From Anaerolineae bacterium (GTDB lineage: Bacteria > Chloroflexota > Anaerolineae > JAAYZQ01), in NCBI GenBank assembly GCA_034435455.1, contig DAOTXL010000102.1, forward strand, positions 15,704-79,703: 64,000 nucleotides of DNA, read 5' to 3'. Below the pieces are notes generated by a model, which searched no databases, had not been told where the DNA came from, and was given only the letters and a program-made list of their open reading frames with translations. Below, piece after piece: positions 22,089-32,272 of the stretch. The position numbers and the translations under genes are program-made. The number at the start of each line of letters is the position of its first letter. The first letter of the stretch is position 1.

Positions 22089-22748
22089 ATGGGCCGGATT
22101 GCTGCACTGTTTGACATGGACAAGACCCTGCTGGACACCAGCTCCGGTCAGCTTTACGCCCGCTACCTGTACCGCAACGGCCAGATGAAGCGCAGGGAGA
22201 TGGCGCGGGTGTTCTGGTGGGGCCTTCTCAGTCGGTTGGGGGTGCTGGACATGCAGAGCCTGCTCCCCCGGCTGTTGGCCGGCGCGGCCGGCGATGATGA
22301 AGGGGCGATGCGCGCCCTGTGCGACCGCTGGTTTGTGGAAGAGGTGCTGCCCCACCTGAGCGAGCGGGGACAGCAGCGGGTGGCCGAACACCGGGCCCAG
22401 GGGCACGTGGTGGCCATCGTCTCGGCCTCGACCCAATATGTCGTGGGGCCGTTGGCCGCGCATCTGGGGATCCCGGGCCAGTATGTTTGCACCCGCCTGG
22501 TGAGCCGGGATGGACGGTTTACGGGGGAGATCGAGCCGCCGGCCTGTTACGGCCAGGGCAAGGTGGTCTGGGCCGAGCGGTTTGCGGCCGAATATGGCGT
22601 GGACCTGTCGGCCAGCACCTTTTACACCGACAGCATCAGCGATCGGCCGCTTCTGGAGCGGGTGGGCCATCCTGTGGCGGTGAATCCCGATCCCCGGCTG
22701 CGGCGGCTGGCACGAAAGCGGGGCTGGCCGGTGGAGAGGTTCTATTGA
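22089..22748 (+). CDS. HAD-IB family hydrolase (phosphoserine phosphatase-like)
   Basis: DxDxT motif (FDMDKTLL) at the N-terminus. The 219-aa HAD fold has a cap insertion typical of subfamily IB. Confidence 0.65.
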   Translation: MGRIAALFDMDKTLLDTSSGQLYARYLYRNGQMKRREMARVFWWGLLSRLGVLDMQSLLPRLLAGAAGDDEGAMRALCDRWFVEEVLPHLSERGQQRVAEHRAQGHVVAIVSASTQYVVGPLAAHLGIPGQYVCTRLVSRDGRFTGEIEPPACYGQGKVVWAERFAAEYGVDLSASTFYTDSISDRPLLERVGHPVAVNPDPRLRRLARKRGWPVERFY

Positions 22749-23169
22749 GCCAGCCGGAAGCAACGACCAGGGCCACCGCGTAGCCGCGTTCGTGCGACAG
22801 GCTGATGGCCCAGTGGCGCAGGCCCTGCTCCTCGGCCAGGGCCAACGCCCGGCCTGACAGGCGGACCCCCGGCTTGCCCCAGGGGTCGGACAACACCTCC
22901 ACCTCTCGCCAGCCGATGCCGTGGCTGCTGAGGTGGGCCAGCCCCACCCCCAGGGCTTTGGAAACCGCTTCCTTGGCGGCCAGGCGAACGGCCAGCTCCG
23001 GCAACCGGTGGCCATAGCGGGCGATCTCCTCTGGCGTGTAGATGCGCGTCAGAAAGCGGTCGCCGTACCGCTCTACCGCCCGCCGCAGGCGCTCTATCTC
23101 CACCAGGTCCACGCCGACGGCCAATAGGGGCGACGCATGCGTCGCCCCTACGCTAGGCTCCTTCGCCAT
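22636..23169 (-). CDS. acpS: holo-[acyl-carrier-protein] synthase with unusual C-terminal tail
   Basis: [23 protein letters not shown]..WxxVEV phosphopantetheinyl transferase motifs. Start taken at the internal ATG 23169. The ORF runs about 40 codons past the AcpS core and overlaps the convergent HAD gene. Confidence 0.65.
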
Positions 23170-24466
23170 TGTAGCCCCGGCCCATGCCCCGGTATATGAA
23201 CCCCATCTCGGCCATCCGCCTGGGATCGTAGATGTTGCGGCCATCCACCAGCACCGGCTGGCGCATGGATGCCTTGATGCGGGCCATATCGAGCTGCTTG
23301 AACTCGTTCCATTCGGTCACCAGGATCAGACCATCGGCCCCTTCGGCCACCTGGTAGGGATCCTGGCAAAAGACCACATCTTGGAGCAGCCGCCGGGCGT
23401 TCTCCTGGGCCTCCGGGTCATAGGCCTTGACCGTGGCTCCCTCGTGCTGGAGCATGTGGACCAGGCTGATAGAGGGCGCATCGCGCATATCATCGGTGTT
23501 GGGCTTGAAGGCCAGCCCCCACAGGCCGATGGTCTTGCCCCGAAAGCCGCCCAGGATATGGCGCAGCTTCTGGATCAACCGCTTGCGTTGGTCATAGTTG
23601 ACATGGGTCACGGCCCGCAGGATTTCGGGGTTCTCGCCATAGAGTTCGGCCATGTGGATCAGCGCCTTGACATCTTTGGGGAAGCAACTGCCGCCCCAGC
23701 CGATGCCGGCCCCCAAAAAGTGGGGGGAGATGCGGTGATCGGTGCCCATGCCGTGGGCCACCTCCTTGACGTCGGCGCCCAGCGCCTCGCAGATGTTGGC
23801 GATTTCGTTGATGAACGAGATCTTGGTCGCCAGGAAGGCGTTAGAGGCGTACTTGATCATCTCGGCCGTCCGCAGGTCGGTGATGATCCGCTCGCCGCCC
23901 AGCGGGTAATAGAGCTCCGCCACCCGTTCGGCGGCCCGGCGGTTGGTGGAGCCCAGCACGATGCGGTCGGGGTTCATGAAATCATAGACGCCCGACCCTT
24001 CGCGCAGGAATTCGGGGTTGCTGACCACCCAGAAGGGCACATCCTCGCCGCGGATTTCGCGCACAATGTCGGCCACCCAGTCGCCGGTGCCGATCGGCAC
24101 GGTGCTCTTGTTGACAATGATCACCTCTTTGTGGATGCGCCGGGCGATCTCTTCCGCCGTGGCGTTGACGTGGGCCAGGTCGGCCTCGCCCTCGATGCCG
24201 GTGGGCGTGCCCACCGCGATGAACACAAACTCGGCGTCGGCCATCGCCTCATCCCAATCGGTGGTAAAGTGCAGGCGGCCCGCCTCGCTGTTGCGCCGGA
24301 CGATCTCTTCCAGGCCCGGCTCATAGATGGGCAGGATGCCCTTTTTCAGGTTCTCCGACTTTTCCCGGTTGCGGTTGATGCAGATGACCTGGTTGCCCAG
24401 GTCGGCCAGACAGGCACCGGTCACCAAACCCACGTACCCGACGCCTACGACTGTGATGTTCGCCAT
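23153..24466 (-). CDS. ugd: UDP-glucose/GDP-mannose dehydrogenase family (UDP-glucose 6-dehydrogenase), copy 1
   Basis: N-terminal Rossmann [14 protein letters not shown], catalytic Cys region GGSCFPKD, 437 aa. Confidence 0.85.
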
Positions 24467-24505
24467 CTTCTTCTCCTCTTCTCAATTCTAATATCTAATA
24501 CCCGA

Positions 24506-25807
24506 TCAATCTTGTCCCGGCCCGGCAACCGCCAGAGCATAGATATCCGGATCCAAATATTTCCGGGCCATTTCCTGTACATCCTGGGCAGTGACCTGAT
24601 GGACCAGAGAGGCATAGCGTTCCAGATAGTCCAGCCCCAGGCCGTGGCGCTCCATATCCAGCAGGGTCCCGACCAGCCCCTCGTTTGTTTCCAGGCGCAG
24701 GGGCATCGAGCCGGTGAGGAACGACTGGCTGTCGGCCAGTTCGGCAGCGGGGAGCGGTTCGTCGCGCAGGCAGCGCACCTCCCGGCGGATGCTGTCAATA
24801 GCCTGTTCCACGTTGGCCGGGTTGACTCCGGCGATGACCAGCCACGGGCCGGCGCCCAGCCCGGCTTCGAGGCGGCTGTAGACATAGTAGGCCAGCCCCT
24901 GCCGGTCGCGGATGTGGTCGCCCAGGCGGCCCATCATGCCGAAAACGCCCAGGATGGTGTTGGTCAGGTGGGCTTTCATAAAGTCGGGATCGTTGCGGGC
25001 CAGCGCCGGCCAGCCCAGCACGATATCGGCCTGAGCTTTGCCGACCACGGGCACTGCCTGGCGGCGCGGCCCGCTGAGCTGCACCCTCGGCGGGATACTC
25101 CGGTTAGGGGTCGCCTCCGGGGCCTGCCAGTCTCCCAACCTGGAGTGCACCCGGTCCACCACCGCCCCGGCCGAGATGGCTCCCACCACTACGACGATCA
25201 TCCCCGCCGGGGAGTAATGCCGCCGGTAATATCCGACCAGGTCGTCGCGGCCCAGGGTGGCCACGGTCTCTTCGTACCCCTGAACGCTGCGGCCGTAGGG
25301 GTGGTTGGGGTAGAGCAGGGCATCGAAGGTCAGGCGGGCCATGCGGCGTGTATCGTGGGCGCGCCGTTTCAGGTCGGTGAGGATCTGGCCCTGGAGCCGG
25401 GTGGCCTCGTCGGGCGGGAAGGTGGGGTGCTGCAGGCAGTCGGCCAGGATGTCCAGGAGCAGGTCCAGGTCCTCGGCCAGGGCCTTGCCGCCAAAGCCGA
25501 CGGTGTGGACGCCGCTGTGGAAGGCCAACTGGGCCCCCACCGATTCCAGCGCTTTGTTGATCTGCTCAAAGGTGCGCGTCGCGGTGCCGCGCATCAGCAT
25601 CCCGGCGGTGAAATTCGCCAGCCCGGCCTGCTCCGGCGCTTCGTCGAGCGACCCGGCCCACAGGGACCCGCCGATCACCACCGCCGGGCTGCTGTGGTTT
25701 TCGTAGAGGAGCAGGACGATGCCGTTGGGCAGTTCGACGCGGGTGATCGTTTCCGGTGAGGGGATGGATGCGGTCACAAATTGCCTCCTACAGGCCCAGG
25801 GGCACAT
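24506..25807 (-). CDS. M16 family peptidase, non-catalytic partner (HxxEH motif absent)
   Basis: M16B-like length and fold signature. The position of the zinc motif reads ANFTAGMLMRGT instead of HxxEH. Confidence 0.65.
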   Translation of the reverse strand: MCPWACRRQFVTASIPSPETITRVELPNGIVLLLYENHSSPAVVIGGSLWAGSLDEAPEQAGLANFTAGMLMRGTATRTFEQINKALESVGAQLAFHSGVHTVGFGGKALAEDLDLLLDILADCLQHPTFPPDEATRLQGQILTDLKRRAHDTRRMARLTFDALLYPNHPYGRSVQGYEETVATLGRDDLVGYYRRHYSPAGMIVVVVGAISAGAVVDRVHSRLGDWQAPEATPNRSIPPRVQLSGPRRQAVPVVGKAQADIVLGWPALARNDPDFMKAHLTNTILGVFGMMGRLGDHIRDRQGLAYYVYSRLEAGLGAGPWLVIAGVNPANVEQAIDSIRREVRCLRDEPLPAAELADSQSFLTGSMPLRLETNEGLVGTLLDMERHGLGLDYLERYASLVHQVTAQDVQEMARKYLDPDIYALAVAGPGQD

Positions 25808-27086
25808 AGTGGCCCACGGTCCGGTTGCGACGTGTCAGGTAGGTGTTGGCGGCGCGGTGTAGATCCTGAACGGTGACAGAGGCCAGGCGGTCCAGGAACG
25901 ACTCGAACCAGTCGGTGTCGGCCATGACCGACGAAAGACCCAGCCAGAAGCCCTGGTTGGTCACACTTTCGCTGGAATAGGCGAATTGGGCCTTGCTCTG
26001 CTTGAGGGCGGTTTGCAGCTCCTCGGCCGAGATCGGACCGGCCAGGATGCGCTCCATCTCGGCGTTGAGAGCGGCTTCTACCTCCTCCAGGCTGCGCCCG
26101 TCCCGCACGGTGGCCACGATGCTGTAGAGGTAGGGGTCGAGCATGGGCGACAGCGAGCCGGATACACTCGCCGCCAGGCCGGTCTCTACCAGTGCCCTGT
26201 ACAGCCGCGAACTGCGGTTGGGCGGCGGTCCGGAAAACAGGTTCATGCCGCCGGCGCCGGTCAGGATCGTGCTGAGCAGGGTCATGGGGAAAAAGTCGGG
26301 GTGGGCCGCCTGGGGGGCCTTGTAGGCGACCTGGAGATAGGCGGTAGCACCCGGCCCCTCCAGGAGGATGCGGCGCTCCCCGCGTTGAGGTGGCTCCGGG
26401 CGGTTCACCGGCGGCGGGTCGGAGCGGGCCGGGATGGGGCCGAACAGGTCGGCGATGCGGGCCAGCATCTGCGTCGGCTCGAAATCGCCCACGGCCACCG
26501 CAATGGCATTGTTGGGGCCATAGTAGGTCTGATAGTGGTGCCACAGTTCCTCGTGGCCGATCGCCTCCAGATCGCACAGATCGCCGATGGTGTCGTGGTG
26601 GTAGGGATGCACCCGGAAGGCGGCCCCGATCACCTCCTCGTTCAGCAGGAAAACAGGTTCGTTTTCAGCGCCTTGCCGCTCCGAGATGATAACCGTGCGT
26701 TCCAGGGCCACCTCCTCCGGATCAAAGAGGGCATTGACCATCCGGTCGGCCTCGATGCGCAGGGCCAGGTCCACCCGATCGGCAGGCAGCGTCTCAAAGA
26801 AGGCGGTAAAGTCGAGCCAGGTGAAACCGTTCTGCACGCCGCCGTTGCGGGCGATCTGCCGGTCAATTTCACCTTTGGGGAACGCCCGAGAGCCTTTGAA
26901 CAGCATGTGCTCGGCCCAGTGGGCGATGCCGGTGATGCCGGGCACCTCGTTGCGGCTGCCAACCCGGTACCACACCCAAAAGGTAGTCACTGGGGCGTGG
27001 TGGTCCTCTTTGAGCAGCACGGTCAGGCCGTTATCCAGAGTCTGTTTCAGGATCGTCATGGTTTTCTCCAGGGGGCAGGGGAGCAC
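25788..27086 (-). CDS. M16 family zinc peptidase, catalytic subunit
   Basis: Inverted zinc-binding motif HWAEHMLFKGS (HxxEH). Its 3' end overlaps the start of the partner M16 gene by 20 nt. Confidence 0.8.
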   Translation of the reverse strand: MLPCPLEKTMTILKQTLDNGLTVLLKEDHHAPVTTFWVWYRVGSRNEVPGITGIAHWAEHMLFKGSRAFPKGEIDRQIARNGGVQNGFTWLDFTAFFETLPADRVDLALRIEADRMVNALFDPEEVALERTVIISERQGAENEPVFLLNEEVIGAAFRVHPYHHDTIGDLCDLEAIGHEELWHHYQTYYGPNNAIAVAVGDFEPTQMLARIADLFGPIPARSDPPPVNRPEPPQRGERRILLEGPGATAYLQVAYKAPQAAHPDFFPMTLLSTILTGAGGMNLFSGPPPNRSSRLYRALVETGLAASVSGSLSPMLDPYLYSIVATVRDGRSLEEVEAALNAEMERILAGPISAEELQTALKQSKAQFAYSSESVTNQGFWLGLSSVMADTDWFESFLDRLASVTVQDLHRAANTYLTRRNRTVGHYVPLGL

Positions 27087-27099
27087 CCCTGGCCAGGCT

Positions 27100-28398
27100 C
27101 TAATAGCCGCGCCCCATCCCCCGATAGATGAACCCCAGCGCCTTCATCTGCTCCGGGTCGTAGAGGTTGCGGCCATCCACGATGATCGGCCGGCGCATGG
27201 CTGCCTTGAGGCGGGGCAGCGACAGGTGCTTGAATTCGTTCCACTCGGTGACAATGACCAGGGCGTCGGCCCCCTCTGCCACCTGGTAGGCGTCCTGGCA
27301 CAGGGCAACGTCGTGCAGATATCGGTCGGCGTTGACCATCGCCACCGGGTCGTAGGCCCGAATGCGCGCCCCTTCACTTTGCAGCAGGTGGATCAGTTCC
27401 ACCGAGGGCGCTTCGCGCATGTCGTCGGTGTTGGGTTTGAAGGCCAGTCCCAGGACCCCGATCACCGCTTCGTCCAGGGTGCCCAGCAGCTCCCGCAGCT
27501 TGTGGACCACCTGCCGGCGCTGGTCGCGGTTGATCTCCATCACCGCCCGCAGCAGTTGGGGATGACAGCCGTGGACGGCGGCCATGTGGGCCAGGGCCTG
27601 GACATCCTTGGGGAAGCAACTGCCGCCAAAGCCGATGCCCGCATCCAGAAAAGAGGGGCCGATCCGCTTGTCGTACCCCATCCCCACCGCCACTTCCTTC
27701 ACGTCGGCCCCCAGCGCCTCGCAGATGCTGGCGATCTCGTTGATGAACGAGATGCGGGTAGCCAGGAAGGCGTTGGAGGCGTACTTGATCATCTCGGCGG
27801 TGCGCAGGTCGGTGATCATGATAGGGGCCCGGAGCGCCAGGTAAAGCTGGGCCACCTGGGCTGCGGCTTCGGGGTTCAGCGAGCCGAGGACAATGCGGTC
27901 GGGGTACATGAAATCGTTGATGGCCGACCCTTCGCGCAGGAATTCGGGGTTGCTGACGACAGAAAAGTCGATCGGGTATGGCTGGTGGCGGCGGACAATG
28001 TCGGCCACCCAGTCGCCGGTGCCGATGGGCACCGTGCTCTTGTTGACAATGATCAGGGGGTGATCCATGGCCCGGGCGATACTCCGCGCCGCCGCCCGGA
28101 CATATTTCAGGTCTGCCTCACCTCCGCTGCCCTGCGGTGTGCCTACGGCGATAAAGGCAAATTCCGCCTGGGCCAGCCCCTCCGGGTAGGAGGTGGTGAA
28201 ATGCAGGCGCTCTGCCTGGGCGTTGCGCCGGACCATCTCTTCCAGGCCCGGTTCGTAGATCGGCATCACCCCGGCGCGCAGTTTTTCGATCTTGAGCTCG
28301 TCCACGTCCACACAGGTTACTTCGTGGCCCAGGTCGGCAAAGCAGGTACCGGTTACCAGGCCTACATATCCGACCCCGATCACGCAAATCTTTCTCAT
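27100..28398 (-). CDS. ugd: UDP-glucose 6-dehydrogenase, copy 2
   Basis: [22 protein letters not shown]. Collinear with copy 1 over the full length. Confidence 0.85.
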
Positions 28399-28550
28399 GG
28401 GATTCAGCCCTCACTGCCGATTGTTGTCCATTCCGCTACGTGCCTTGTGTGTGGGGGAGCCGATAGGGCGGCGAGCGCCCTTCCCTGGCACACCGGGTTT
28501 ACTATACCACAAAAACAGGGCTTTTTCAAATAGCTGGGGCTTGTTTACCG

Positions 28551-30225: not shown

Positions 30226-30546
30226 GCCTCTATAGCCCAAAAGGCTGTGAAGGGAACGAGTAGGCGCGGCGGAACGCCCAGAGAGCCTGGCCACAGGGTG
30301 AAAGCCGGGCGCGGAAAGCCCGCCGAATATCCTCCTGGAGCCGCCAACCGAACATCGGCTGTGGGCCGACCAGTAGGCCTGGCCGGAGTCGCCCACCGTT
30401 AGCCGGGCGCGGGTATCGCCCCGCAGGCAGGTTGCGTCCATAGAGGGCCGTACCCGATAAGGTGAGCGGTAACGCTAAGAAGGGTGGTACCGCGGGAGTC
30501 AGATGTCGGCGCTCTCGTCCCTTGGGCTGAGGGCGCTTTTTCGTCT
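30226..30546 (+). promoter_or_regulatory. T-box riboswitch leader (tRNA-sensing transcription antitermination element)
   Basis: Canonical T-box sequence AGGGTGGTACCGCGG at 30481-30495. F-box CCGTTA at 30396-30401. AG-box AGAGAG at 30280-30285 followed by GGGTGAAAG. GC hairpin plus TTTTT at about 30508-30546. AAGGAGG RBS and GTG start of the downstream ORF. Confidence 0.8.
30508..30546 (+). terminator. intrinsic terminator of the T-box leader
   Basis: GGCGCTCTCGTCCC..GGGCTGAGGGCGC hairpin followed by TTTTTCGTCTTTTCG. Its 5' arm overlaps the 3' part of the T-box antiterminator. Confidence 0.6.
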
Positions 30547-30569: not shown

Positions 30570-31550
30570 GTGAAGTATGTTTCCTACTCCAAATTGAGTG
30601 GCCTGCCCCACATCATCGTGGATGGGGCGGCCCAGGCCGATACGGTCTTGACCTTGAGCCACTGGCCGGGCAGTCCTTCACCGCCCGAGTTCCGCGCCGA
30701 CACCAGTACCGAGATCGTGCTGAACTATCTGGCTTCGCCGGGCGCACAAAAGCGGTATGCCCCAAAGGTGCGCACCGTGTCGAACAACCACTTTGACGAG
30801 GATGGCCTCTGTGCGGTATGGGCCATGCTCCATCCCGAACCGGCCTTGAAACGGCGAGAACTGCTCATTGACGTGGCTACCGCCGGGGATTTCAACACCT
30901 ACCGCCGACCCCAGGCGGCCAAGGTGGTGTTCACCATCCGCAGCCACGCCGATCCGGATACCTCTCCTGTAGCCGGCAAACTCCAGGGCGATGACGACGC
31001 CGGCACTGCCCGGTATCGGGCCCTGTTGCCGCTGCTGGAAAGCTTCCTGGAAGATACCGAACACTATGGGCCTTACTGGGATGGCGAGTGGTCGGCCATG
31101 CTCAAAAGCAAGACGGCGATGGTCACCGGTCAGGTCGATCTCCACGAGGTCCCCCATGTGGATCTGGCGGTGGCCCAGGCGCCCGAACTCCTTCACCCGA
31201 TGGTCCTCTACAACAGCACCGAGCGCCTGCGGGTATTGACGGCATTGCCCGGTGGCTTTTACCTGTTGCGCTATCGCGCCGAGACGTGGGTGCAGTTCGC
31301 CAGCCGGCCGGTGATGCCCCGCGTGGACCTGACCCCGCTGCTGCCACGCCTGCAAGAGCTGGAACGGTCAGGGGCCCGCTGGACCTTTGACGGCATAGCC
31401 ACCAGGACCCCGGCCCTCCAGCCGGTAGGGCCTGATGGTCGGCCGGCCCCCAGCAGCCTGAAACTGGAGACCCTCCTCGACGAACTGGTGGCCTTTTATG
31501 AGCGGGAGCAGAACAAGCCGGCGTTGCAGTGGAATCCTTATCCAGGATAA
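30570..31550 (+). CDS. T-box-regulated protein of unknown function (326 aa)
   Basis: GTG start with AAGGAGG RBS 8 nt upstream. High GC3. No motif I can assign. Confidence 0.6.
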   Translation: MKYVSYSKLSGLPHIIVDGAAQADTVLTLSHWPGSPSPPEFRADTSTEIVLNYLASPGAQKRYAPKVRTVSNNHFDEDGLCAVWAMLHPEPALKRRELLIDVATAGDFNTYRRPQAAKVVFTIRSHADPDTSPVAGKLQGDDDAGTARYRALLPLLESFLEDTEHYGPYWDGEWSAMLKSKTAMVTGQVDLHEVPHVDLAVAQAPELLHPMVLYNSTERLRVLTALPGGFYLLRYRAETWVQFASRPVMPRVDLTPLLPRLQELERSGARWTFDGIATRTPALQPVGPDGRPAPSSLKLETLLDELVAFYEREQNKPALQWNPYPG

Positions 31551-31561
31551 AGGACGCGGAA

Positions 31562-32272
31562 ATGGCGGAGAATCTGTATCAGACAGACAGTTACATACAG
31601 GAGTTCGATGCGGTGGTGACGGCGGCAGAAGGGCAGGCGGTGGCCCTGGACCGCACAGCGTTTTACCCTGGCGGTGGCGGCCAACCCCACGATACCGGGG
31701 CCCTGACCTGGGCCGGCGGCTCGGCGCGGGTGGTCAAGGTGCAGAAGCAAGGGGAGGAGGTGTGGCACACCCTGGAGGGCGACCTGCCGCCGGTCGGGAT
31801 GCCGGTCCACGGGGCGCTGGACTGGGAGCGGCGCTATCAACTGATGCGCACCCACACCGCGCTTCACATCCTGTGCGGCATAGTCTGGCGTGACTATGGC
31901 GCCCTCGTTACCGGTGGCAACATGGACCCGCTGCAGGGCCGGATGGATTTTGAGTTCGAGACGCTGCACAAGGAGCTGGTAGCCGAGATCGAAGCCCGCG
32001 TCAACGCCGAGGTCGCCAGGGGCCGTCCGGTGCGCGTGGCACTGTTGCCCCGCGAGCAGGCGTTCCAGATCCCCGACCTGATCCGCACCAAAATCAACCT
32101 GCTGCCGCCGCACATTCAGGAGGTGCGCATTGTAGAGATCGAGGGGCTGGACCTGCAAGCCGACGGCGGTACCCACGTGGCCAACACCTCCGAGGTGGGC
32201 CGGGTGCGGGTGGTGGACTATAAGAGCAAAGGGGCGATCAACAAGCGGATCTATATCGAGTTGGAAGCATAG
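31562..32272 (+). CDS. AlaX-type tRNA editing-domain protein (threonyl/alanyl-tRNA synthetase SAD)
   Basis: LYxxDxYxxEFDAxV start and HTALHIL (HxxxH) zinc motif of the AlaX/ThrRS editing domain. The second motif reads DGGTHV (Asp in place of the usual Cys). Confidence 0.7.
   Translation: MAENLYQTDSYIQEFDAVVTAAEGQAVALDRTAFYPGGGGQPHDTGALTWAGGSARVVKVQKQGEEVWHTLEGDLPPVGMPVHGALDWERRYQLMRTHTALHILCGIVWRDYGALVTGGNMDPLQGRMDFEFETLHKELVAEIEARVNAEVARGRPVRVALLPREQAFQIPDLIRTKINLLPPHIQEVRIVEIEGLDLQADGGTHVANTSEVGRVRVVDYKSKGAINKRIYIELEA

Follow-up and report, generated by a model that had tools for sequence, protein, structure and literature searches.

SPH2681 and SPH2682 of Sphingomonas sp. A1 (3amj, 3ami) are encoded by adjacent genes and are chains of approximately 420-440 aa, each composed of an M16 and an M16_C domain. 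One of the two chains carries a zinc site of the form HxxEH-X76-E, while the other is devoid of zinc ligands but has an R/Y pair. The same traits are found in M16A and M16B, two neighbouring genes in a 64,000-nucleotide (nt) stretch of DNA from an Anaerolineae bacterium (Chloroflexota; contig DAOTXL010000102.1, positions 15,704 to 79,703), referred to here as the window, and their best matches to the Sphingomonas pair are reciprocal, subunit to subunit. Also akin are TTHA1264/TTHA1265 of Thermus thermophilus (7v4y) and the beta and alpha subunits of the mitochondrial processing peptidase (MPP). Unlike SPH2681/SPH2682, the window pair belongs to a Chloroflexota host and is embedded with two UDP-glucose dehydrogenase (ugd) genes and acpS; the relationship is a distant one, with no sequence-search match above 213 bits. 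The arrangement is probably a conserved operon in which an M16 pair of a known kind lies between two old, separately evolving ugd genes, with no duplicated unit behind it. An earlier interpretation made from the letters of the DNA alone (the sequence-only reading) had taken it for a tandem duplication of a ugd-M16 unit.

Heterodimers are the state of most M16B-type enzymes, the R/Y pair of the non-catalytic half that completes the active site is the norm, and the HxxEH-X76-E spacing has been tabulated for SPH2681 and its relatives (PMC12731061). PqqF/PqqG, and also PqqL, share with the window pair the M16 family and the concept of an active chain paired with an inactive one. Unlike PqqF/PqqG, no pqqA-E genes are present in the annotated neighbourhood of a related locus that is 84% identical (L001), and PqqL and PqqF are far weaker structural-database matches to M16A than SPH2681.

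Both Ugd proteins resemble UgdG of Sphingomonas elodea (4a7p) and BceC of Burkholderia cepacia (2y0c/d/e), which are the best solved relatives of each, with E values of 1e-118 to 1e-140. They share with UgdG and BceC the three-domain architecture, the GxGxxG and KYASNAF motifs and the catalytic Cys within GGSCFPKD. Unlike UgdG and BceC, the window encodes two paralogues in one operon, and ugd1 together with its whole clade carries Asn31-Arg32.

The operon consists of five open reading frames (ORFs) that follow one another in the same orientation on the minus strand, from 22.6 to 28.4 kb, and were assigned to gene families by Pfam and NCBIfam profiles. The order ugd2, M16 with HWAEH, M16 with ANFTAGM, ugd1, acpS given by the sequence-only reading is correct on the minus strand, and no further ugd or M16 copy was found in the 64-kb window. 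In order of transcription the features are:

28501-28529, minus strand: sigma-70-type promoter (TTGAAA, 17 nt, TATAGT, with an extended TGTGG -10), from a consensus scan
27100-28398, minus strand: ugd2, 432 aa, canonical NAD-type UDP-glucose 6-dehydrogenase paralogue (Asp31)
25788-27059, minus strand: M16A, 423 aa, M16B-type zinc peptidase, catalytic subunit
24506-25777, minus strand: M16B, 423 aa, non-catalytic partner subunit
23153-24466, minus strand: ugd1, 437 aa, UDP-glucose 6-dehydrogenase paralogue with Asn31-Arg32
22636-23124, minus strand: acpS, holo-ACP synthase, last gene of the operon, start uncertain

The M16 peptidase pair

M16A and M16B each contain an N-terminal Peptidase_M16 domain (PF00675) followed by Peptidase_M16_C (PF05193), and the two proteins are 24% identical. 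The zinc site of M16A is made up of H47-W-A-E50-H51 and E127 in the HxxEH-X76-E spacing and aligns with HALEH and E131 of SPH2681. Where HxxEH would be expected, M16B has N55-F-T-A-G (within ANFTAGM), with both histidines and the catalytic Glu gone, and a Leu has taken the place of the distal Glu ligand. HxxEH is absent from all 120 M16B homologues among the matches listed. The loss of HxxEH from the second peptidase, already remarked in the sequence-only reading, is thus confirmed on alignment, where no intact zinc site remains. The C-terminal domain of M16B retains an R/Y pair, R290...Y297 (IRDRQGLAY), aligned with irdkrglsy of SPH2682, whereas a Tyr at the corresponding distance is missing from M16A.

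The best solved match of M16A is the active subunit SPH2681 (3amj_C/3ami_A; E 4e-58, 200.6 bits), as compared with E 3e-17 and 65.9 bits for the inactive subunit of 3amj. M16B shows the reverse preference, matching the inactive subunit SPH2682 best (3amj_B; E 1e-38, 136.3 bits) and the active subunit with E 3e-16 and 62.6 bits. As M16A and M16B match different proteobacterial subunits, the division into an active and an inactive chain would predate the separation of the Chloroflexota and proteobacterial proteins; judging from these matches the split is ancient and is unrelated to the ugd genes. The same subunit-to-subunit correspondence bears out the suggestion of a catalytic/non-catalytic heterodimer of the MPP-like type. 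The ratio of non-synonymous to synonymous divergence (dN/dS) is 0.12-0.18 for M16A and approximately 0.2 for M16B, the latter value indicating purifying selection, and M16B is therefore likely to be a functional pseudo-peptidase partner rather than a decaying copy.

M16A and M16B are predicted to form a heterodimer, as suggested by the adjacency of their genes, with a gap of 10 nt and a Shine-Dalgarno sequence that lies over the M16A stop codon. It is proposed that together they make up a cytoplasmic zinc peptidase of the M16B type, clam-shell in form like SPH2681/SPH2682, in which M16A would supply the single zinc site and the R/Y pair of M16B would complete the substrate-binding chamber. No hydrophobic signal-like N-terminus was seen by eye in the translation of either protein. 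A role in peptide maturation resembling that of PqqF/PqqG, which had been put forward alongside the MPP-like one, found no backing: the TIGR02110 model reaches 36.4 bits where its cut-off is 320, and no pqq genes or genes for ribosomally synthesised and post-translationally modified peptides (RiPPs) lie nearby. Membership of the YfmF/YfmH group (EF-P modification) was rejected as well, the scores of 90 and 77 bits falling short of the cut-offs of 285 and 250.

Orthologues of M16B are also found in Thermoflexus (L009-L018, L032-L037, L040, L044), where they are 54-58% identical, carry the motif AAFTAEM and lack HxxEH. These genes are solitary, with no M16A-like gene within 6-7 kb, and their catalytic partner would therefore be encoded elsewhere or be absent.

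Two Ugd clades

Both Ugds contain the three Ugd domains PF03721, PF00984 and PF03720 and score well above the TIGR03026 cut-off of 190 bits (475 bits for ugd2 and 464 bits for ugd1). The catalytic residues K205, N209, C261 and D265 are invariant between them, and both enzymes would probably oxidise UDP-glucose to UDP-glucuronate.

The two proteins share 66% identity over 432 residues without a gap, and the sequence-only reading was correct that they are collinear and similar at the N-terminus. Their genes are 71% identical at the nucleotide level and 58% identical at third codon positions, with no identical stretch longer than 34 nt and a sliding-window identity of between 0.61 and 0.82. Synonymous and non-synonymous divergence (NG86) amount to a dS of 0.74 and a dN of 0.275; dN is 0.27-0.30 in every genome with both genes, and the range of dS is 0.74-1.34. 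A recent duplication or gene conversion of the ugd copies was considered and rejected, both on the 71% nucleotide identity with no near-identical tract and because the identity between the two proteins is steady at 62-66% in all six genomes that have both.

The expectation that the two copies would be nearer to each other than to their orthologues was not upheld. Orthologues of ugd1 and of ugd2 are each 85-96% identical, far above the identity between the paralogues, and each copy resembles its orthologues in other genera far more than it does the other copy in the window, which is the outcome that the sequence-only reading had itself named as speaking against a duplication. Homologues of ugd2 fall into more than 120 clusters at an identity of at least 87%, and those of ugd1 into at least 120 clusters that span identities of 76-100%. 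A neighbour-joining tree that also included 30 diverse representatives recovers the ugd1 clade and the ugd2 clade each as a monophyletic group in 200 of 200 bootstraps. Selection on both is strongly purifying, with dN/dS between orthologues of 0.04-0.10 for ugd2 and 0.04-0.11 for the two Ugds together.

The sequence-only reading had also looked to alignment and synonymous divergence of the two gene pairs to date a duplication. The alignment was informative and points to unequal ages, with 66% identity for the Ugds as against 24% for the M16 proteins. The synonymous clock was of less use: with G+C at third codon positions (GC3) of 83-86%, dS between the ugd genes is close to saturation, and it was therefore replaced by dN and by comparisons among orthologues.

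Four Ugd homologues of 680-940 aa (P0362, P0363, P0369 and P0388) are interrupted exactly at the catalytic Cys (GGS|C, around residue 260) by an insert of 230-470 aa, which is the pattern expected for inteins. P0361 differs in that it consists of two complete Ugd-like halves fused to one another.

Gene order among relatives

Related loci were gathered through protein look-ups, a genome-contig scan and a metagenome-contig scan, and were classified by tblastn and blastp. With A and B standing for M16A and M16B, their gene orders are:

ugd2-A-B-ugd1-acpS: window, L001, L005, L022, L025, L030, L008 and L050, and L024, which is truncated upstream
ugd2-A-B-acpS: L029, L053, L054 and L056
ugd2-A-B, contig ending after M16B: L026 and L055
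ugd2-A-B-CinA: L007 and L031
A-B-acpS without ugd: L003 and L004

The placement of ugd2 directly upstream of M16A recurs in 16 related loci. Four look-ups started from ugd2 instead of M16, and each of them encountered the M16 pair immediately downstream, despite differing upstream neighbours, namely a metallo-beta-lactamase-fold gene, GntR/TPP-enzyme genes or methyltransferase/PrsW genes. The presence of ugd1 is less constant: of the 20 loci that are readable downstream of M16B, only 9 have it between M16B and acpS, and in the ugd2-A-B-acpS and A-B-acpS loci, which lack it there, acpS directly follows M16B. Genes of the ugd1 type also occur in unrelated contexts devoid of M16 genes, in L051 and L052 (84% and 77% identity). 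More distant M16 pairs with approximately 30% identity (L045, L046, L048) have no ugd neighbour, and neither do the M16B orthologues of Thermoflexus. A single ugd-M16 unit, as would be expected of the unduplicated state, was found in none of the relatives collected. A fusion of M16A with a remnant of ugd2 was also looked for in L003 and L004, where M16A begins with ATGAGA and has no N-terminal extension.

L050 (ERZ25039461 contig_9864) has the entire operon, with ugd2, both M16 genes and polA broken into fragments. The breaks resemble frameshift errors of long-read assembly rather than pseudogenes.

Promoter and leader of the operon

The ugd2 gene is preceded by the promoter at 28501-28529 and then by a leader of approximately 100 nt. 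The promoter core TTGTGGTATAGT is identical in 12 fetched loci, and equivalent sites of the form ATTTGGAAAAG-N-TTTTGTGGTATAGTG are found in L001, L003-L006, L021, L022, L025, L026, L030 and L053, that is, across lineages whose M16 proteins are just 67-84% identical. In L003 and L004 the identical promoter stands directly before M16A, ugd2 being absent. Intergenic gaps within the operon are 10-40 nt and contain Shine-Dalgarno sequences, a scan found no terminator-like site on the minus strand inside the operon, and the GTG start of acpS shares nucleotides with the stop codon of ugd1 in several relatives (GTGA). From this layout we infer that the five genes would be co-transcribed from one promoter.

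The leader of ugd2 has no match in Rfam. A structured regulatory leader was considered and rejected, the RNAalifold consensus being negligible (-5 kcal/mol, 8 pairs).

A perfect 22-nt palindrome, GGGGCGACGCATGCGTCGCCCC (23127-23148, minus strand), with no T-run behind it, separates the stop codon of ugd1 from the likely start of acpS. It is absent from L025, L030, L008 and L050, where the stop and start codons overlap.

History of the operon

The following course of events is proposed. The widespread core would be promoter-(ugd2)-M16A-M16B-acpS, to which ugd2 was probably linked early. Later ugd1, drawn from a separate Chloroflexota Ugd clade, would have been inserted once between M16B and acpS in a sub-lineage, and the lineage of L003 and L004 would have lost both ugd genes. 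Several results weigh against this account or leave it less sharply defined. An exclusive sisterhood of ugd1 and ugd2 is recovered in only 30 of 200 bootstraps, and ugd1 may have arisen either from an old duplication within the lineage or by acquisition from elsewhere. Neither Ugd reaches the cut-off of an NCBIfam equivalog model, be it TuaD (548 and 573 bits, cut-off 700), AglM (401 and 395 bits, cut-off 670) or PRK15057; these models were built for other lineages. The neighbour-joining tree of M16A plus M16B has an unresolved backbone with node supports of 28-59%, and only 13 of 500 bootstraps place L003 and L004 at the base. The proposed order of events was accordingly derived from counts and by parsimony, and ugd1 may instead have been lost repeatedly from a five-gene ancestor.

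Such an ancestor is the alternative that survives best, although it is unlikely. It would have held both ugd genes, with ugd1 derived from an old duplication of ugd2 in this place and lost repeatedly thereafter, and both genes lost in L003/L004. The insertion site of ugd1 is exactly the same in all nine loci that have it, and both Ugds belong to one broad subgroup; no representative at the 50% cluster level is more than 61% identical to either copy. The M16 backbone, with its low supports, is compatible with multiple losses. On the other hand, several independent and precise losses would be needed to account for the loci without ugd1 downstream of M16B (L029, L053, L054/L056, L007/L031, L027, L042 and L043). 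The occurrence of ugd1-type genes in unrelated contexts also speaks against it, as does the low bootstrap count for an exclusive ugd1-ugd2 group. Furthermore, over the N-terminal 265 residues the intein-bearing Ugds are nearer to ugd2 (70-74%) than ugd1 is (approximately 66%).

A different proposal concerns function rather than descent, namely that the peptidase and UDP-glucuronate synthesis serve one pathway, for example in the processing or turnover of envelope or glycosylated peptides or in proteolytic control of Ugd. The persistence of ugd2 next to M16A under one conserved promoter, while the upstream neighbours change, is in its favour, and as a weaker extension of the cofactor proposal for ugd1 (see below) the promoter-ugd2-M16A-M16B linkage may reflect a real tie between the peptidase and nucleotide-sugar metabolism. 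Nevertheless we regard the proposal as quite improbable: L003 and L004 retain the promoter and the peptidase pair without a ugd gene, the pairs with approximately 30% identity and the Thermoflexus orthologues have no ugd neighbour, and the operon also holds acpS, an unrelated housekeeping gene. There are no glycosyltransferase or precursor-peptide genes nearby, and the N-termini of both subunits lack a signal-like character. The adjacency of Ugd and peptidase is a conserved feature of an Anaerolineae operon that shows no sign of mechanistic coupling.

The weakest explanation, tandem duplication of an ancestral ugd-M16 unit followed by subfunctionalisation in which each peptidase kept its own Ugd, has in its favour the alternating gene order and the collinear Ugds with their 66% identity, but is dismissed as extremely improbable, as ugd-M16-M16-ugd is mirror-like and not a direct repeat of a unit, the M16 proteins are far more diverged than the Ugds and match different subunits of the proteobacterial heterodimer, and relatives have ugd2-A-B-acpS, ugd2-A-B-CinA or A-B-acpS, never a single unit.

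Cofactor site of the two Ugds

Conservation of at least 95% within each Ugd clade, together with a difference between the clades, is seen in thirteen columns of the alignment. The most telling of these is position 31, where Rossmann strand beta2 ends, 18 residues behind GxGxxG. In Rossmann-fold dehydrogenases an acidic residue at this point binds the adenine-ribose hydroxyls of NAD, and its loss together with an adjacent Arg is the usual mark of NADP acceptance. Asp31 is present in all 118 sequences of the ugd2 clade, and Asp likewise in those solved Ugds that the alignment shows; of 70 diverse Ugd representatives, 69 carry Asp or Glu here. The ugd1 clade has Asn31 in 120 of 121 sequences and Arg32 in all 121.

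Use of NADP+, or of both cofactors, is proposed for ugd1 on account of Asn31-Arg32. The residues at this site suggest that ugd1 may accept NADP+ or both cofactors and that ugd2 would use NAD+, a difference which would explain the retention of both genes. It is possible, though only tentatively so, that the whole ugd1 clade represents a family of NADP+-using or dual-cofactor UDP-glucose dehydrogenases, retained in many Anaerolineae next to a canonical NAD+ enzyme within the same operon. To our knowledge such a family has not been described, and a search of the full-text literature for NADP-dependent Ugd found nothing relevant.

Gene boundaries

The sequence-only reading had reported an overlap of 20 nt between the two M16 genes, which turned out to be an artefact of taking the longest ORFs (25788-27086 and 24506-25807). 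All M16B homologues begin with M[T/S/A]xSxPS, whose equivalent in the window is the GTG at 25777; this codon is preceded by an AGGAGG Shine-Dalgarno sequence that overlaps the M16A stop codon, and the gene call on the source contig likewise gives 423 aa. Starting M16B at GTG 25777 therefore leaves a true gap of 10 nt, and the corresponding gap in relatives is 2-12 nt. By comparison with homologues and their gene calls, M16A starts at ATG 27059 and not at GTG 27086.

The acpS gene contains the ACPS Pfam domain and scores 84.6 bits with TIGR00516 against a cut-off of 59.8. Its start may be TTG 23124 or ATG 23169, the latter overlapping the end of ugd1. The ORF extends approximately 30-40 codons beyond the ACPS domain, whereas the orthologue in L001 is only 130 aa, and its far part (22636-22748) overlaps a convergent HAD-family gene (22089-22748, plus strand) by approximately 110 nt.

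Neighbouring features

Upstream of the operon, on the plus strand, a T-box leader is indicated at 30238-30525 (RF00230, 71.5 bits, E 3e-14, under the gathering score of 93). A DUF6687 ORF (30570-31550) and an AlaX-like tRNA_SAD ORF (31529-32272) follow immediately downstream. In L001 a class-I aminoacyl-tRNA synthetase gene comes after the DUF6687 and AlaX-like genes.

Implications

The M16 pair adds one more bacterial M16B-type active/inactive heterodimer to a class that is already textbook, and has little effect on the understanding of peptidase biology. The locus also serves as a caution, as its alternating paralogues mimicked a duplicated unit while comparative synteny points to stepwise assembly around an old core. 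Only the change at the cofactor site of ugd1 carries some forward value. The replacement of Asp by Asn-Arg throughout the clade leads to a prediction that is cheap to test, namely that cofactor use is altered in a widespread family of Chloroflexota Ugds, and if the prediction is true, UDP-glucuronate synthesis could draw on either pyridine-nucleotide pool.

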